DNA of 64,000 nucleotides from Anaerolineales bacterium (lineage in GTDB: Bacteria > Chloroflexota > Anaerolineae > Anaerolineales > Villigracilaceae). Each line of letters opens with the position of its first letter. Within the stretch, counting starts at the first letter, position 1. The position numbers and the translations under genes are program-made. Location: NCBI GenBank assembly GCA_035515435.1, contig DATJBI010000067.1, positions 32,788-96,787 on the forward strand. The letters run 5' to 3'. Positions 1-60,243 of the stretch are shown here, piece by piece. The notes under the pieces are model-generated. The model was not told where the DNA came from. It made no database searches and saw only the letters and a list, made by a program, of their open reading frames with translations.

Positions 1-138
1 CAAAGAATCGGCGATGTTCGATTTGCCGGAGCCGTTCGGCCCGACAATCGCGGTGATCCCGCCCGCAAATTCAAACACGGTGCGGGATGCAAAGGTCTTG
101 TATCCGTGGAGTTCGAGGGATTTTAGACGTAATGGCAT
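1..138 (-). CDS. smc: Chromosome segregation protein SMC, N-terminal fragment (runs off left edge)
   Basis: Own minus-strand translation from ATG at 138: [46 protein letters not shown]. Walker A GPNGSGKS in an SMC-type N-terminus. Lies directly downstream of rnc. Confidence 0.8.
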
Positions 139-187
139 TTGTGCAGAAAACTCAGATTATGTTCTTGACCGCCAGACAAAAACCCTG

Positions 188-904
188 TTATTTGGAAAGC
201 CCAAGCGCTTCAAGCGTGGTCTGCGCTGCGATCTGTTCGGCGATCTGTTTGCTCGGTCCCTTGCCTCGGCCATACGCCGCGCCTTTGATGCAGACTTCAA
301 TTTCAAAGACCTTGGCATGGTCCGGCCCGCTCGCAGAGACGGTGATATATTGCGGCGTTCCCAGTCTTTCGGCCTGGGCCCATTCCTGCAGGCGGCTCTT
401 TGGATCATAGATCTCCGCACGCTGAATGACGCGTTCCTTAACGCTATCCAGCAGCGGTTCCATGAATTTTTCAACGGCGAGCACGCCCTGGTCCAGATAG
501 AGTGCGCCGATCACCGCTTCAAAGGTCGAGCCGAGCAGGTTATCCCGGCTGCGCCCGCCCGAGGCAGACTCGCCGCGTCCCATCCGCATCGCCCGCCCCA
601 ACTCCAGGTGACGGGCGAATTCGGCAAGCTGTTCGTTGCGCACCAGGGCGGAACGCGAACGCGTCAACTCACCCTCCTTCATTTCGGGACAATGGTGATA
701 GACCCACGCGCCAACCAAAAATCCCAAGACGGCATCGCCCAGGAACTCCAGCCGTTCATTATCTTCAAGCGCATCGGAATTTTCGTTGAGATACGAACGG
801 TGCGTCAAGGCCCTCGTCAACAGGGAAATGCTTGTGAAGGACAGGCCCAGCCGCGCGGCCAGTTGCATCGGCGACTCGGACACACCATCTGAATTCGAGG
901 CCAC
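188..904 (-). CDS. rnc: Ribonuclease III
   Basis: 238 aa ORF with the RNase III signature NERLEFLGDAVLG and a C-terminal dsRNA-binding-like region. Confidence 0.93.
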   Translation of the reverse strand: MASNSDGVSESPMQLAARLGLSFTSISLLTRALTHRSYLNENSDALEDNERLEFLGDAVLGFLVGAWVYHHCPEMKEGELTRSRSALVRNEQLAEFARHLELGRAMRMGRGESASGGRSRDNLLGSTFEAVIGALYLDQGVLAVEKFMEPLLDSVKERVIQRAEIYDPKSRLQEWAQAERLGTPQYITVSASGPDHAKVFEIEVCIKGAAYGRGKGPSKQIAEQIAAQTTLEALGLSK

Positions 905-1085
905 AGTATCCTCTTCTGAACTCAGGGAGCGCCAAGCCCTACCCAGGCCCGGGCAGGGCCTCGCGGCCCATCAGTTCGATATGATTTGCGCACCGGATTG
1001 TAACCTGAATCGTGACGGCTGGCTACAAGAGCCCGATATTTTAAGATACAATGATCGCTGTAATCCGGAGGAACGCTTGAACAGC

Positions 1086-2012
1086 ATGGTTAGCAATGAA
1101 ACTCGTTTTTTGCACGCGATCGAAATGGGATTGGGCGCTTGGCAGTGGGGAGACCGCTTTGTCTGGCAGTACGGACAAGGCTTTGACGATGAAGACATCC
1201 ATCAGGTGTTTCTCACCTCGATTGCCGAGGGGATCCGCTTCCTGGACACGGCCGAAGTGTATGGTTCGGGACGCTCCGAACGAATGACCGGAAAATTCCT
1301 GAAGGAAACTGATCAACCGGTTCTGGTCGCGACCAAGTTCTTTCCGCTGCCGTGGCGCTTGACGAGTGATTCGGTCCCGGCCGCGCTCAAGCGGAGTCTG
1401 GAACGTCTTCAGATGGAGACCGTGGATCTCTACCAGGTCCACATGCCAAGTCCCCTGTTCAGTCCGGAAACAGCCATGGAAGGCATGATCAAGTGCGTCA
1501 ACCAGGGCTGGACACGAACGGTCGGCGTGTCGAACTACAATCAGTCACAGATGATCCGCGCCTATTCCACCCTTGAGCGCAACAGCATTTCCCTGGCGTC
1601 AAATCAGGTTCACTTTAGCCTGCTCAACCGGGAAGTGGAAAAGAATGGGCTGCTGGCCCGCTGCAAAGAACTCGGCGTGCGGCTGATCGCGTACAGTCCG
1701 CTCGAGATGGGATTGCTGACCGGTAAGTACACTTCGAAGAATCCTCCGCCCGGGAACCGCGGCGGACGCTACGCGAACCTGCTGAACAAGATTGAGCCCC
1801 TGCTCAAGCTGATGAACGAGGTCGGACAGGAACACGGCGGCAAGTCAAACCCGCAAGTAGCCTTGAACTGGGTGATCTGCAAGGGGGCGCTGCCGATCCC
1901 CGGTGCCAAGAAGGCCTCCCAGGCCCTGCAAAATGCCGGGGCGCTCGGCTGGAAGTTAAGCGAAGAAGAAGTTGCCAGGCTGGATGAAGCCAGCGACCGG
2001 GTCCTTCAATGA
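1086..2012 (+). CDS. Aldo/keto reductase family oxidoreductase
   Basis: Track ORF 786..2012. AKR-like sequence starts at internal ATG 1086 (MVSNETRFLHAIEMGLGAWQWGD...FLDTAEVYGSGRSE...). The upstream 100 aa overlap rnc on the other strand. Confidence 0.85.
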   Translation: MVSNETRFLHAIEMGLGAWQWGDRFVWQYGQGFDDEDIHQVFLTSIAEGIRFLDTAEVYGSGRSERMTGKFLKETDQPVLVATKFFPLPWRLTSDSVPAALKRSLERLQMETVDLYQVHMPSPLFSPETAMEGMIKCVNQGWTRTVGVSNYNQSQMIRAYSTLERNSISLASNQVHFSLLNREVEKNGLLARCKELGVRLIAYSPLEMGLLTGKYTSKNPPPGNRGGRYANLLNKIEPLLKLMNEVGQEHGGKSNPQVALNWVICKGALPIPGAKKASQALQNAGALGWKLSEEEVARLDEASDRVLQ

Positions 2013-2047
2013 AGCCGACCGGGGGTTTCTCCATTCCAGATTCTTTA

Positions 2048-2056
2048 TGCTATAAT
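2048..2056 (+). promoter_or_regulatory. Extended -10 promoter element TGcTATAAT
   Basis: Sequence tgcTATAAT at 2048-2056. An A at 2063 lies 7 nt downstream as a possible TSS. The -35 is weak. Confidence 0.4.
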
Positions 2057-2065
2057 ACCCCCACC

Positions 2066-2155
2066 TTGAAGAGCAAACTCAACTTCGCCGGCAACAACCC
2101 TGACAACGACAACGATAATCCCGCGCGGGCCGTTGGGCGAAGCGTTGCAACTTGA
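2066..2155 (+). CDS. Candidate Asn/Asp-rich leader peptide upstream of aspS-asnS (start uncertain: TTG 2066 or ATG 2009 overlapping the AKR stop as ATGA)
   Basis: Own translation: (M/L)KSKLNFAGNNPDNDNDNPARAVGRSVAT*. Codons 2093-2119 are AAC AAC CCT GAC AAC GAC AAC GAT AAT. Stop TGA at 2153-2155. Below the 60 aa cutoff of the ORF track. Confidence 0.45.
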   Translation: MKSKLNFAGNNPDNDNDNPARAVGRSVAT

Positions 2156-2187
2156 TCCATAACTCCGGTCAAACCAATCGCCCGACG
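2083..2187 (+). promoter_or_regulatory. Candidate attenuator: mutually exclusive helices 1:2 and 2:3
   Basis: Segment 1 (2083-2089 CTTCGCC plus 2092-2095 CAAC) pairs with segment 2 (2132-2142 GTTGGGCGAAG). Segment 2 (2131-2140) can instead pair with segment 3 (2178-2187), giving 10 bp including one G-U. Segment 3 is also the 5' arm of the terminator. Confidence 0.5.
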
Positions 2188-2211
2188 CAAAAGCGCAGGG
2201 CGATTTATTTT
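2176..2211 (+). terminator. Intrinsic terminator (segments 3:4 of the candidate attenuator)
   Basis: AATCGCCC (2176-2183) pairs with GGGCGATT (2198-2205). An inner CGC/GCG helix is capped by AAAA, followed by TTTATTTT. Confidence 0.7.
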
Positions 2212-2321
2212 GTATGCACTCTCACCACGGAGCCACCCCGAACAGCAGGGACCGCTTTGTATCCACAAGGAAGAAACACTGCGTGCCGGGCGCCCGGTGG
2301 TGAACATCTCGGAGGCGCAAT

Positions 2322-4091
2322 ATGTACAAAACTCATACGTGTGGGGAACTGCGGCCGGCCCATATCGGCCAGGCGGTGACATTGGCCGGCTGGGTGCATC
2401 GCCGCCGCGACCATGGAGGCGTGGTTTTCCTTGATTTGCGCGACCGGTATGGAATCGTCCAAATCACGATTAATCCGAGTTTATCCCCCGAGACATTGAA
2501 GACTGTCGCGGATATTCGCTTTGAATGGGTGCTGCAGATCGCCGGCACGGTCCAAAAACGGCCGCCAGGCATGGACAACGCCAACATGGCGACCGGGGAA
2601 GTCGAAGTGATCGCCAGCGAGATCAAGGTGCTCAACCCGGCCAAGACGCTGCCGTTCATGGTCAACAACGGCGACACCAATGAGGCCGACGAAAACACGC
2701 GCCTCAAATACCGCTATCTGGACCTGCGCCGCGAACGGATGAGGGAAAACATGATCCTGCGCCACCGCGTGACCAAGTTCATGCGCGATTATCTCGATCA
2801 ACAGGGCTTCATTGAGATCGAAACCCCCATCCTTTTCAAAGCCACCCCGGAGGGGGCGCGCGATTATCTCGTGCCCTCGCGCGTTTATCCGGGCCAGTTC
2901 TATGCCCTGCCCCAGTCGCCGCAACAACTCAAACAATTGCTGATGGTGGCAGGCATGGATCGCTATTTCCAGATTGCGCGCTGCTTCCGCGACGAAGACC
3001 AGCGGGGCGACCGCCAGCCCGAGTTCACGCAGCTCGACCTGGAAATGTCCTTTGTTCAACGCGACGATGTGCTGGCCATGGTCGAGGGCCTTTACAGCGC
3101 GCTGATCCCTGCCGTCACGCCGCACAAGCGCATCCCGGCCTCGCCGTGGCCGAAGCTGTCCTACACGGAAGCCATCGAGAAATACGGATCCGACAAACCC
3201 GACCTGCGCTTCGGGATGGAACTGATCGCGGTCAGCGACCTCTTTGCCGGAAGCGACTTCCGCGTCTTTCAATCGGCACTTGCCGGGGGCGGTGTGATCA
3301 AATGTCTGGTGGCAGGCGGTTGTGCGGAGTACAGCCGCCGCGAGCTGGACGAGCTGACCGAAATTGCGAAGTCGTTCGGAGCCGGGGGCCTGGCCACCTT
3401 GGCCCTGACCGCCGAGGGCCCGAAAGGATCCGCCGCGAAATTTATCAAGCCCCAAGAGATCGAAGCGGTCAAATCGAGGGTCGGTGCGAAACCAGGCGAT
3501 CTCATCCTATTTGCCGCGGATCAACGCGCGGTGGTCAATAAGGCCCTGGGCGGTTTGCGCCTGGCATTTCGCGATCGGCTCAATCTGGCGGATCAGGACG
3601 TGCTGGCCTTCGCCTGGGTCGTGGACTTCCCGATGTTCGAGTGGAACGAGGAAGAAAAGAAATGGGACGCCGCACACCATCCTTTCACGATGCCCAAGCT
3701 GGAAGACCTGGTGAAGTTCGAGACGAACCCCGGCGAGGTTTTCTCGGACGCCTACGACATGGTCTGCAACGGCTTCGAGATGGCGTCGGGTTCGATCCGC
3801 ATTCATCGCCGCGATATTCAATTCAAGATCTTCCAATTGCTCGGTCTGAAAGAGGCAGAAATCCAATTGAAGTTTGGACACATGCTGGAGGCCTTTGAAT
3901 ACGGCGCGCCGCCGCACGGCGGCATGGCCCCGGGCATTGACCGGCTGGTGATGCTGCTGGCGGACGAACCAAACATTCGCGAGGTGATCGCCTTCCCCAA
4001 GAATTCGACCGCCCGGGATGTGATGGCCGATGCGCCATCGTCCGTGGAACCCAAGCAGTTGAAGGAACTGCATATCAAGATCGTGGAATAA
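2322..4091 (+). CDS. aspS: Aspartate--tRNA ligase (bacterial type)
   Basis: 589 aa. N-terminal OB fold (HTCGELR...GWVHRRRDHGGVVFLDLRDRYG), class II motifs (FQIARCFRDEDQRGDRQPEFTQLD, GGMAPGIDRLVMLL). GGAGG SD at 2311-2315. Confidence 0.97.
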   Translation: MYKTHTCGELRPAHIGQAVTLAGWVHRRRDHGGVVFLDLRDRYGIVQITINPSLSPETLKTVADIRFEWVLQIAGTVQKRPPGMDNANMATGEVEVIASEIKVLNPAKTLPFMVNNGDTNEADENTRLKYRYLDLRRERMRENMILRHRVTKFMRDYLDQQGFIEIETPILFKATPEGARDYLVPSRVYPGQFYALPQSPQQLKQLLMVAGMDRYFQIARCFRDEDQRGDRQPEFTQLDLEMSFVQRDDVLAMVEGLYSALIPAVTPHKRIPASPWPKLSYTEAIEKYGSDKPDLRFGMELIAVSDLFAGSDFRVFQSALAGGGVIKCLVAGGCAEYSRRELDELTEIAKSFGAGGLATLALTAEGPKGSAAKFIKPQEIEAVKSRVGAKPGDLILFAADQRAVVNKALGGLRLAFRDRLNLADQDVLAFAWVVDFPMFEWNEEEKKWDAAHHPFTMPKLEDLVKFETNPGEVFSDAYDMVCNGFEMASGSIRIHRRDIQFKIFQLLGLKEAEIQLKFGHMLEAFEYGAPPHGGMAPGIDRLVMLLADEPNIREVIAFPKNSTARDVMADAPSSVEPKQLKELHIKIVE

Positions 4092-4176
4092 CGATATTCG
4101 ATCATTGGGAATCAGGGACCCGGGAGCGCGTTGTCCCGGACAGCCAGGAACGATTTCCGGGGCCCGAGGAGCGCTT

Positions 4177-5517
4177 ATGCCAATCATTCGTGTCGATCAA
4201 ATTTCAAAATACGACGGTCAGGACGTAACCGTTCAAGGCTGGGTCTACAACCGCACCGACAAAGGCAAGCTGGTCTTCCTGCTCGTGCGCGACGGAACCG
4301 GCTTTGCGCAATGCGTCGCCTTCAAGAGAGACCTCGACCCAGGGCTCTTCGATCAGGTGATGCGCCTGCCGCAGGAGTCGGCGGTCATCATCACGGGCCC
4401 CGTCCGAGCCGACAAACGCGCGCCCGGCGTCCCCGGCGGGTACGAGATCGGCGTGAAGAAAATCGAGATCGTGCAGACCGCCGGGGCCGATTACCCGATG
4501 TCGCTCAAGGATCACGGCGTGGACTTCGCGCTGGACAATCGGCACTTGTGGATCCGCATGCCGAGCCAATGGGCGATCCTGCGCGTCCGCGCCACGGTGA
4601 TGGCGGCAACCCGTGAATGGCTGGATACCAACGGCTTTATCGCGATGGACACACCGATCCTGACCCCGGCCGCGGCCGAAGGCACCACGACCCTCTTCGA
4701 GACCGAATACTTCGACGAAGGCAAGGCCTACCTGGCGCAGACCGGCCAACTCTACAACGAAGCCAACATCTTTGCGTTTGGAAAAGTCTATTGCTTTGGC
4801 CCCACCTTCCGCGCCGAGAAATCAAAGACCCGCCGCCATCTGACCGAGTTCTGGATGCTCGAACCGGAAATGGCCTTTTGCGATCTCGACGGGTTGCTGG
4901 AAATCGAAGAGCAGATGATCACGCACATTGTCCAGCGCGTGCTGCGTGACCGCCGGCCCGAACTGCTTTCGCTCGGACGCGATCTGACCAAGCTTGAAAA
5001 TGTCAAAGCGCCATTTCCGCGCATTTCCTATGATGATGCGGCAAAAATGCTGAAGGAGCTCTACGAAAAGGAGAGCGACCCCGAAAAGAAGGACTTGCTC
5101 AAGTTCGATTGGGGCATCGACTTCGGCGCACCGCACGAAACCGCGATCACGAATCAATATGACAAGCCGGTGTTCTGCTACGGCTATCCGACCGCGGTCA
5201 AGGCATTTTACATGGAACCGTGGCCCGGCCGCCCGGAGGTATGCAAGTCGGTGGATCTGCTGGCGCCCGAAGGCTACGGCGAAATCTGCGGCGGCTCGGA
5301 GCGCATCAGCGATCACGACCTGCTGCTGAAGCGCCTCCACGAACAAGGCCTTCCCGAAGACGCCTTCAAGTGGTATCTCGAACTGCGGAAATATGGTTCG
5401 GTTCCGCATTCGGGATTCGGCATGGGCGTGGAACGCGTCACTTCATGGATCTGCGGCATTGAACACATCCGCGAGGCAATTGCATTTCCGAGGACGATCA
5501 AACGAGTGTACCCTTAG
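4177..5517 (+). CDS. asnS: Asparagine--tRNA ligase
   Basis: Track ORF 4105..5517. ATG 4177 is preceded by GAGGAG. MPIIRVDQI...GWVYNRTDKGKLVFLLVRDGTGF, FRAEKSKTRRHLTEFWMLEPEMAF, GFGMGVERV. Confidence 0.95.
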   Translation: MPIIRVDQISKYDGQDVTVQGWVYNRTDKGKLVFLLVRDGTGFAQCVAFKRDLDPGLFDQVMRLPQESAVIITGPVRADKRAPGVPGGYEIGVKKIEIVQTAGADYPMSLKDHGVDFALDNRHLWIRMPSQWAILRVRATVMAATREWLDTNGFIAMDTPILTPAAAEGTTTLFETEYFDEGKAYLAQTGQLYNEANIFAFGKVYCFGPTFRAEKSKTRRHLTEFWMLEPEMAFCDLDGLLEIEEQMITHIVQRVLRDRRPELLSLGRDLTKLENVKAPFPRISYDDAAKMLKELYEKESDPEKKDLLKFDWGIDFGAPHETAITNQYDKPVFCYGYPTAVKAFYMEPWPGRPEVCKSVDLLAPEGYGEICGGSERISDHDLLLKRLHEQGLPEDAFKWYLELRKYGSVPHSGFGMGVERVTSWICGIEHIREAIAFPRTIKRVYP

Positions 5518-8988: not shown

Positions 8989-9330
8989 CCTTTGCCTCCT
9001 TAAATTGCCTGGTTGCCATGGTAGAGATCATTTATCGGGTTTGGTCGGCCCGATAACGGATTAAGCTTAGCATAGATTTAAGACAATTGCAATGCCGCCC
9101 CAGTTAATTTTCCTCTCCCCACGCTCATGCGATTATGGTATAAGAATCATGCCCTGCCGTGTTCGTGATGTTGCACTCTCGGTTTTGAGCCAACACCAAT
9201 TCCATCGGGCATCTGTCTCACAGAAATAACGCGATAGGCCTGAGCCAAGGCGGCGTTTCTGAGTCGGGGCCCACCTGCGAAAGCAGGTTCAAAACTCCGC
9301 AATACACGGCATGTGCGGGGCATTTTTACC

Positions 9331-59721: not shown

Positions 59722-59772
59722 TCCTTAGGGGCCGACCCGGGCACGGAGGCCGGGCTTGGCAATCGTGTTAAA

Positions 59773-60243
59773 ATGAAATACATGTCCGAGGATGTCAAGG
59801 TCGTTGCCACCAACCGCAAGGCTGGCTTTGAATATTTTCTTTTGGAACGCTTCGAAGCAGGGTTGTCCTTGCGGGGAAGCGAGATCAAGTCCATCCGCGC
59901 CGGGCAAATGAGCATCGTTGAATCTTACGTGGATATAGAAAACGGCCGAAATGCCTTTCTGGTGGAGGCGCATATCGCCCCCTATGAGCAGGCCAATCGC
60001 TTCAATCACGATCCCAAACGCAGGCGCCGCCTGCTGCTGCACCGAAAGGAGATCCGCGAGCTGTGGAACGGCGTCCGCCTGAAAGGGATGACGATCGTTC
60101 CGACCCGGGTTTATCTGAAAAATGGGCGCGCCAAGATCGAAATCGCTTTGGCGCGCGGCAAGAAATTGCACGACAAGCGCGAGGCGATTGCCAGACGCGA
60201 TGCCGAGCGTGAGGCCAAGCGAGATGCACATCCAGGGGTGTGA
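59773..60243 (+). CDS. smpB: SsrA-binding protein SmpB
   Basis: ATNRKAGFEYFLLERFEAGLSLRGSEIKSIR...HDPKRRRRLLLHRKEI. The start may be ATG 59782. Confidence 0.95.
   Translation: MKYMSEDVKVVATNRKAGFEYFLLERFEAGLSLRGSEIKSIRAGQMSIVESYVDIENGRNAFLVEAHIAPYEQANRFNHDPKRRRRLLLHRKEIRELWNGVRLKGMTIVPTRVYLKNGRAKIEIALARGKKLHDKREAIARRDAEREAKRDAHPGV

Follow-up and report, generated by a model that had tools for sequence, protein, structure and literature searches.

A predicted ribosome-mediated attenuator with an asparagine/aspartate leader peptide upstream of aspS-asnS in Anaerolineales

The stretch of DNA analyzed here (the window) comprises 64,000 nucleotides of contig DATJBI010000067.1 from an Anaerolineales bacterium (assembly GCA_035515435.1, phylum Chloroflexota) and carries near its beginning the genes of two aminoacyl-tRNA synthetases, aspS and asnS, in tandem on the forward strand. 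The end of an aldo-keto reductase gene at 2012 and the start of aspS at 2322 bracket a leader region (2013-2321), and asnS starts 13 nucleotides (nt) 3' of the aspS stop codon, a start that is uncertain as the alignment with relatives only begins at about residue 24. A preliminary description had pointed in this leader region to a short open reading frame (ORF) with a run of asparagine (Asn, N) and aspartate (Asp, D) codons, to mutually exclusive helices and to an intrinsic terminator, and had likened their geometry to classical attenuation. All of these elements are present (Table 1), and the likeness extends to what can be expected of such a system at the sequence level: the ORF and the identity of its codons are conserved, start signals accompany it, one strand is shared between alternative helices, and the spacing is compatible with the footprint of a ribosome.

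Table 1. Features of the leader region and of the genes downstream (window coordinates)
Feature	Position	Strand	Remarks
Extended -10 promoter, TGcTATAAT	2048..2056	+	No recognisable -35; motif kept among relatives
Leader ORF, 29 codons, TTG start, TGA stop	2066..2155	+	Predicted leaderless or with an untranslated region of at most ~3 nt; homologous ORF in relatives
Segment 1, anti-antiterminator 5' strand, CUUCGCC GG CAAC	2083..2095	+	Shared with the Phe-Ala codons and the first Asn codon
Regulatory run, 8 Asn/Asp codons in 9 (AAC AAC cct GAC AAC GAC AAC GAT AAT)	2093..2119	+	
Segment 2, CGUUGGGCGAAG	2131..2142	+	Pairs with segment 1 or segment 3
Small spacer hairpin with the leader stop codon (UUGA.CC / GG.UCAA)	2152..2172	+	Minimum free energy fold; role uncertain
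Segment 3, terminator 5' arm and antiterminator 3' strand, AAUCGCCCGACGC	2176..2188	+	
Segment 4, GCGCAGGGCGAUU, then U-tract; intrinsic terminator	2193..2211	+	Minimum free energy fold
Long hairpin between terminator and aspS ribosome-binding site	2222..2308	+	Folding; position not conserved in relatives
aspS Shine-Dalgarno sequence, GGAGG	2311..2315	+	GGAGGCG-n-ATGTA kept in relatives
aspS, bacterial-type aspartyl-tRNA synthetase, first regulated gene	2322..4091	+	NF001750, 851 bits (cut-off 443)
asnS, asparaginyl-tRNA synthetase, second operon gene	4105..5517	+	NF003037, 516 bits (cut-off 414)

The leader ORF encodes the peptide (M/L)KSKLNFAGNNPDNDNDNPARAVGRSVAT and is closed by a TGA stop codon at 2153-2155. 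Nowhere else in the six reading frames of the window do at least seven of nine codons stand for Asn or Asp. The surrounding RNA can form three helices. Helix 1:2 pairs CUUCGCC[GG]CAAC (2083-2095) with GUUGGGCGAAG (2132-2142) through seven contiguous pairs and four more across a 2-nt bulge, helix 2:3 joins CGUUGGGCGA (2131-2140) to UCGCCCGACG (2178-2187) by ten pairs including one G-U, and helix 3:4 combines AAUCGCCC (2176-2183) with GGGCGAUU (2198-2205), is extended inwards by G2184-C2196 and CGC/GCG (2186-2188/2193-2195) to a G+C-rich stem spanning 2176-2205, and is followed by UUUAUUUU, which ends at 2211. Folding of 2060-2215, as proposed in the preliminary description, yields helices 1:2 and 3:4 together as the minimum free energy structure, with the core of segment 1 paired to 2136-2142; the regional energies amount to -19.5 (1:2), -20.6 (2:3) and -19.0 kcal/mol (3:4). 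When the upstream 110 nt were shuffled with preservation of dinucleotides, a ten-pair complement to the 5' arm of the terminator arose in just 2 of 2000 shuffles (P ~0.001). A simple terminator scan missed the hairpin on the plus strand only because its loop limit was 8 nt, and a strict two-hexamer promoter scan found nothing at 2048-2056 for want of a -35 element, so that both results are uninformative rather than negative.

Relatives of the window were identified by scanning for the AspS protein with one genome per species (best match to the window AspS, 89% identity) and by inspecting the 450 nt upstream of aspS. Fifteen Anaerolineales genomes, all found through AspS alone, carry the complete unit upstream of the gene. 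Thirteen of them (L001-L011, L015 and L016, the sequence of L006 being cut at the contig end) share the extended -10 motif TGnTATAAT, an ATG 7-11 or 20 nt later and an ORF of 26-30 codons with the form ...FA-N/D run-...VGRSxAG*, followed by CGTTGGGCGAAGC and then by AATCGCCCRACG...GGGCGATTTATTTTG. Two further genomes (L014 and L017) harbor a variant unit with other helix sequences. The unit is absent before aspS in Anaerolinea thermolimosa (L012) and Pelolinea (L013). Among 63 genomes of other lineages, a generic ORF search revealed no N/D-rich ORF upstream of aspS, and a covariance model of the family gave no match. A metagenome scan with the pattern GTTGRGYGAAGC-N22-52-ATCGCCCRACG returned at least 120 stretches; three of these (L101, L140 and L165) lie inside coding sequence and were discarded as chance matches, and the unit is present in at least about 115 metagenome contigs. 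Together, the genomes and the metagenome matches listed provide 125 unique leaders, so the family has at least 125 members; the leader counts that follow refer to this set.

On average the codon run holds 8.5 N/D codons (709 N, 349 D and 41 others in total), its length ranges from 2 to 23 codons, and Asn and Asp together account for about 96% of its codons compared to 9.5% in the aspS coding sequences. Synonymous codons vary freely within this RAY run (AAT 487, AAC 222, GAT 191, GAC 158), and AAT makes up 69% of the Asn codons in the runs but 39% in the neighboring aspS genes. Since third positions are free and the length is variable, the run behaves as a series of codons and not as a nucleotide motif. 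It ends 9-12 nt 5' of the GTTG of segment 2 in 115 of the 125 leaders, which is roughly the reach of the leading edge of a ribosome. One leader (L099:1067-1253) contains about 22 consecutive Asn codons, mostly AAT, and resembles a triplet-repeat expansion inside the run.

The flanks of the run are kept in a different manner. Of 108 leaders, 99 use GCC for the Ala codon of segment 1, whereas 35% would be expected from the aspS coding sequences. In eight leaders (L088, L098, L118, L131, L137, L154, L162 and L163) an insertion or deletion shifts the reading frame over segment 2, so that the peptides end with ...YRWAKHC* and not with ...VGRSxAG*, while the nucleotides of segment 2 are unchanged. 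The position of the stop codon is nevertheless kept, as these leaders use a TAG in place of the TGA, 4 nt earlier: measured from where the GTTG of segment 2 begins, the stop codon ends after 24 nt in 116 leaders and after 20 nt in eight. This pattern argues that the run is constrained as Asn/Asp codons, segments 1 and 2 as RNA, and the stop codon as a position.

Pairing was quantified in an alignment of 117 sequences. Helix 1:2 is paired at 92.6%, compared to 33-43% when the partner strand is slid, and the terminator helix 3:4 at 90.6%, including six double changes from CG to UA at the apical pair; GGGCGAUUUAUUUU is nearly invariant. Helix 2:3 is paired at 99.9% without any double change, a value that carries no information, both strands having been prescribed by the search pattern. 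The small spacer hairpin is paired at 47.8% among the relatives having those columns. In the two variant genomes L014 and L017, which were found through AspS, CGACUGGC (or GGGCGACUGGCG) pairs with GCCAGUCG(CCC); the part of the terminator arm taken up by the antiterminator is here its 5' flank, and in the main group its 3' part. These two leaders thus lend independent support to the predicted helix 2:3.

Expression of the element would start from the extended -10 motif, which had already been noted in the preliminary description; TGnTATAAT is found in 123 of the 124 relatives and at a fixed distance to the leader start, with no conserved -35 and an A-rich region 5' of the -10. The start codon of the leader ORF had been left open between TTG 2066 and ATG 2009. 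Homology decides for TTG 2066, which lies 9 nt 3' of the -10 and aligns positionally with the ATG of the 124 other leaders, the window copy being the only one with a TTG. ATG 2009 was rejected: the conserved promoter lies 3' of it, the relatives show no equivalent codon, and the upstream gene differs among them. The ORF measures 25-29 codons across the family, apart from five outliers of 19-44. Its distance from the -10 falls into two classes, as the ATG follows after 7-11 nt in 96 leaders and after 19-22 nt in 29, and in 28 of these 29 long-spacer leaders a GAGG, GGAG or AAGG stands 5-6 nt 5' of the ATG. The ORF is hence equipped with two kinds of proper initiation signal, leaderless or led by a Shine-Dalgarno sequence, which argues strongly that it is translated. 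A nearly leaderless start, seen as a weak point in the preliminary description, turns out to be the norm of the family.

Elsewhere in the window, the stretch 59766-60243 (plus strand) holds smpB (NF003843, 202.9 bits), whose start codon ATG 59782 follows the extended -10-like TGTTAAAAT (59766-59774; TGnTAAAAT) at a distance of only 7 nt and which is a second candidate for a leaderless mRNA in this genome. This makes leaderless messages plausible in the organism and in this respect supports a leaderless attenuator ORF.

To see how the helices compete in the presence of a ribosome, 121 leaders were folded with a 27-nt ribosome mask. As free RNA, 91% of them form helix 1:2 and 93% the terminator. 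With the ribosome masked in the middle of the run and the transcript cut before the 3' arm of the terminator, helix 2:3 forms in 94%; the fraction is 79% with the mask at the first codon of the run and 64% with the mask at the last. The mean regional energies are -19.5 (1:2), -22.0 (2:3) and -19.1 kcal/mol (3:4).

Taken together, we conclude with high confidence that the element is a transcription attenuator of the trp/his/pheST type, in which the ribosome senses the supply of both Asn-tRNA(Asn) and Asp-tRNA(Asp). From its sequence elements we infer the following course of events. Transcription would begin a few nt 3' of the -10, placing the leader ORF at most ~3 nt from the 5' end, and the ORF would be translated as a leaderless message. 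As long as both charged tRNAs are ample, the ribosome would pass the run and segment 2 and reach the stop codon. With segment 2 blocked in this way during the synthesis of segments 3 and 4 by RNA polymerase, the 3:4 terminator would form, and transcription would end near 2211. If no ribosome is loaded, helix 1:2 would form and 3:4 would again cause termination. When Asn-tRNA or Asp-tRNA becomes scarce, the ribosome should stall within the run (2093-2119), where it covers segment 1 or parts segments 1 and 2 with its front edge clear of segment 2. Segment 2 could thus pair with segment 3 once the latter has been transcribed, no terminator would be formed, and aspS-asnS would be transcribed.

The genes behind the leader fit this amino-acid specificity, with some variation. 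In nearly all contigs with enough sequence, aspS follows the leader. The gene after aspS is a close orthologue of asnS in 25 cases and an archaeal-type Asp-tRNA(Asn) ligase (NF003483, 505.7 bits) in five (L088, L149, L162, L171 and L180); one genome (L007) has gatA (TIGR00132, 610.8 bits) 388 nt 3' of aspS, and in about ten cases nothing follows on the same strand. A leader copy is also found before asnA, the gene of asparagine synthetase A (TIGR00669, 372.8 bits, cut-off 292.8), in L094, L095, L150, L159 and L174, and a second copy lies between asnA and aspS in the four of these with enough sequence (L094, L095, L150 and L174). The run of the asnA leader consists purely of Asn codons, nine in L095 and seven in L174, with zero Asp, whereas the aspS leader 1.2 kb 3' of it in the same two contigs has a mixed run (ANINDDHDN); the asnA leader of L094 is degenerate. 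Two contigs (L122 and L168) contain a complete leader and terminator with no aspS 3' of it, apparently followed by coding sequence on the opposite strand in L168; they may be orphan copies, rearrangements or assembly artefacts. In L143, aspS is frameshifted.

The rationale of the preliminary description, that Asn and Asp are the amino acids charged by the two synthetases downstream, is therefore correct in part only. Leaders with and without asnS after aspS alike have an N:D ratio of about 2:1, the second gene may be an Asp-tRNA(Asn) ligase or be missing, and asnA carries the leader as well. A dependence of the N versus D content on the presence of asnS was not supported, given the same ratio in all classes, with the caveat that Asn codons dominate even where aspS stands alone.

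One possible reason for this dominance is that AspRS, the aspartyl-tRNA synthetase, itself serves the formation of Asn-tRNA. The N-terminal domain of the window AspS (2322-2700) has two anticodon-domain residues, within the motifs RRRDHGG and RPpG, in common with PDB entries 4wj3 and 4rmf (chains named Asp-tRNA(Asp/Asn) ligase), while the discriminating E. coli AspRS reads RRRDLGS and RDEK, and the likewise discriminating Asp-tRNA(Asp) ligase of T. thermophilus RRRDLGG and a gap. The window AspRS may thus be non-discriminating although asnS adjoins its gene. Both positions were reportedly linked by Bernard and colleagues in 2006 to the way in which the Pseudomonas enzyme recognises tRNA(Asn), which serves as a lead only; a full-text literature search for the discrimination residues H31/G83 found nothing. 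Given these residues, the interchangeable asparaginyl-tRNA synthetase and Asp-tRNA(Asn) ligase, and the 2:1 excess of Asn over Asp codons where aspS is alone, we tentatively consider that the attenuator could be a hub of tRNA-dependent Asn supply, with aspS driven mainly by shortage of Asn-tRNA(Asn) and AspRS feeding the GatCAB route. We regard this extension as possible rather than probable; if true, it would represent a regulatory circuit for indirect Asn-tRNA synthesis of a kind that we believe to be undescribed.

Could the switch be real, but run by a factor acting in trans, with the ORF being incidental? Such a factor might be a protein that binds RAY repeats or an uncharged tRNA. The run is indeed a RAY nucleotide repeat, TRAP binds GAG/UAG repeats in a comparable fashion, and covariation cannot tell the two models apart. 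Against this, the triplets form an unbroken series that invariably shares the frame of a start and a stop codon, both fixed in position. The start codon stands at the 5' end or behind a Shine-Dalgarno sequence, the stop position is kept where the frame is shifted, and no conserved protein gene accompanies the element. As to tRNA, aspS and asnS of Firmicutes are controlled by tRNA-binding T-boxes (PMC2494555), but none of the 4227 models of Rfam 15, the T-box and the Trp/His/Thr/Leu/Phe leaders included, matches 1700-2700 at E up to 10, which rules out a T-box riboswitch at this locus. T-boxes were likewise not found upstream of aspS in 14 other Chloroflexota loci. At the gathering score, the sole Rfam match in the entire window is a 6S RNA. 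Hence, we consider control by a trans factor improbable.

More improbable still is that the ORF is the gene of a functional Asn/Asp-rich peptide with the terminator as its end, and that aspS is expressed from another promoter or by constitutive read-through. While conservation extends to the ORF and, by appearance, to parts of the peptide (FA...VGRSxAG), that of the C-terminus can be traced to the RNA, since eight leaders read the same nucleotides in another frame, and the Ala codon of segment 1 is fixed as GCC. The length of the run is also highly variable, the leader is always associated with aspS or asnA, and no conserved promoter-like motif lies between the terminator and aspS, a spacer of less than 30 nt in several relatives. 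A third alternative concerns the window copy by itself, which might be a decaying relic in which the change from ATG to TTG and Gly/Pro interruptions disable translation and leave a constitutive partial terminator. Its start codon is exceptional, and Gly and Pro break up its run (FAGNNPDNDNDN), unlike in close relatives such as L104 and L123. Yet bacteria do use TTG as a start codon, nothing is damaged in the helices, the stop position, the promoter or the eight N/D codons, and a terminator that cannot be relieved would be costly before the essential aspS. Decay of this copy is thus an improbable explanation as well.

Several observations weigh against the ribosome-mediated attenuator that we favor. 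The seven-pair core of helix 1:2, taken alone, is not significant in the shuffles (P ~0.4), so the support for this helix rests on conservation. True covariation is sparse, since the helices hardly vary and the search pattern prescribed segments 2 and 3; the alignment suggested in the preliminary description confirmed conservation of the run and the helices, but covariation statistics contribute little, and for this reason we rely on the codon-level arguments, the frame-shifted subgroup and the L014/L017 variant. Leaderless initiation is generally thought to require AUG or GUG, and with its unique TTG the window copy may be poorly translated. The L008 leader and the L094 asnA leader have just two Asn codons. 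In the folding model, 7 nt of segment 2 remain accessible in 42% of the leaders when the mask sits at the stop codon, and the free RNA of L017 folds into the antiterminator. Moreover, the switch presupposes coupling of transcription and translation, which is an assumption for Chloroflexota. As the ribosome must track RNA polymerase closely for such a switch to operate, the element can conversely be taken as indirect evidence of coupling and of efficient leaderless initiation in Anaerolineales.

Some features of the surroundings lie outside the proposed switch. The long hairpin at 2222-2308 probably does not belong to it. In the relatives compared (L001-L011), the spacer between terminator and aspS contains unrelated palindromic inserts or nothing: GTCATTGCGAG...CTCGCAATGAC occurs in several relatives and AACACAAAGGACAC...GTGTCCTTCGTGTT in others, and no palindrome is seen in L009 and L014-L016. 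The spacer resembles a site at which small palindromic repeats insert preferentially; a single 12-nt arm that was tested (CACCACGGAGCC) has no further exact copy within the window. Upstream, the longest ORF of the aldo-keto reductase comprises 408 aa from TTG 786 (786-2012, plus strand) and overlaps a 292-aa ORF (14-892, plus strand) without an NCBIfam match. The true start of the reductase probably lies well 3' of 786, since the family match only begins at residue 113 or later. The 6S (SsrS) RNA gene is located at 9148-9325 on the plus strand (RF00013, 79.6 bits compared to a gathering score of 46.4).

If our interpretation is correct, Asn and Asp join the short list of amino acids sensed by leader-peptide attenuation, and this mode of control extends to Chloroflexota, in which hardly any gene regulation has been studied by experiment. 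With more than 100 leaderless attenuators of this kind, transcription and translation in Anaerolineales would have to be tightly coupled right from the 5' end of the message. The more than 120 natural variants also constitute a mutational series in run length, frame shifts, leaderless versus Shine-Dalgarno-led starts and Asn-only asnA copies (L095/L174). Finally, aspS with its AspRS of the non-discriminating type, asnS (or the Asp-tRNA(Asn) ligase) and asnA would be joined in one predicted regulon, which provides a handle on the balance between direct and indirect routes to Asn-tRNA in mostly uncultured organisms.

The full-text searchable literature yielded no leader peptide for Asn or Asp and no attenuator for an aspS-asnS pair, in agreement with the preliminary description, although an earlier account may exist. 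Mechanistic counterparts are the attenuators of the trp, his and thr operons (trpL, hisL and thrL), which employ the same stalling of a ribosome. thrL responds to two amino acids (Thr and Ile), similar to Asn and Asp here, and in hisL many regulatory codons follow one another without a break. These leaders control biosynthetic operons, whereas the Anaerolineales leader mainly precedes a synthetase operon with asnA as an additional target; they also sense other amino acids, belong to another phylum and are initiated in another way. Closer in terms of the regulated genes is the pheST operon of E. coli and other gamma-proteobacteria (pheM), where an attenuator likewise stands before synthetase genes, the codons match the charged amino acid, and the same logic of helices 1:2, 2:3 and 3:4 acts with an intrinsic terminator. 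Its codons are for Phe, it belongs to Proteobacteria, its leader has a Shine-Dalgarno sequence, and it shares neither sequence nor an Rfam relationship with the leader described here.

Leader-peptide attenuation of pheST is among the known gamma-proteobacterial cases mentioned in PMC1262725. In that study, Seliverstov et al. (2005) predicted classical attenuators before trpS and leuS in Streptomyces, which are, like ours, computationally predicted leader-peptide attenuators of synthetase genes outside Proteobacteria, for other amino acids and in another phylum; for other amino acid pathways they reported no conserved structures, and the words aspartate and asparagine are absent from the text. 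With regard to initiation, leaders of Actinobacteria are a parallel, since their ORF is located at or near the 5' end without a Shine-Dalgarno sequence and carries codons that match the pathway, although the phylum is another and the codons are those of branched-chain amino acids or Cys. The polycysteine leaderless upstream ORFs of mycobacteria are not known to be linked with any clear three-helix terminator switch. For ilvBNC of C. glutamicum, a leader peptide lacking a ribosome-binding site is described (Morbach 2000, as cited in PMC10272879). The Asn and Asp T-boxes of Firmicutes do the same job as the element proposed here, raising aspS and asnS by antitermination when the cognate tRNA is uncharged (PMC2494555); a T-box binds the uncharged tRNA directly and needs no translation, and its features were not found in the Anaerolineales leader, in which the tRNA would be sensed through the translating ribosome. 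The mechanism is an old one, and its amino-acid specificity, the phylum and the predicted regulon are, to all appearances, new.

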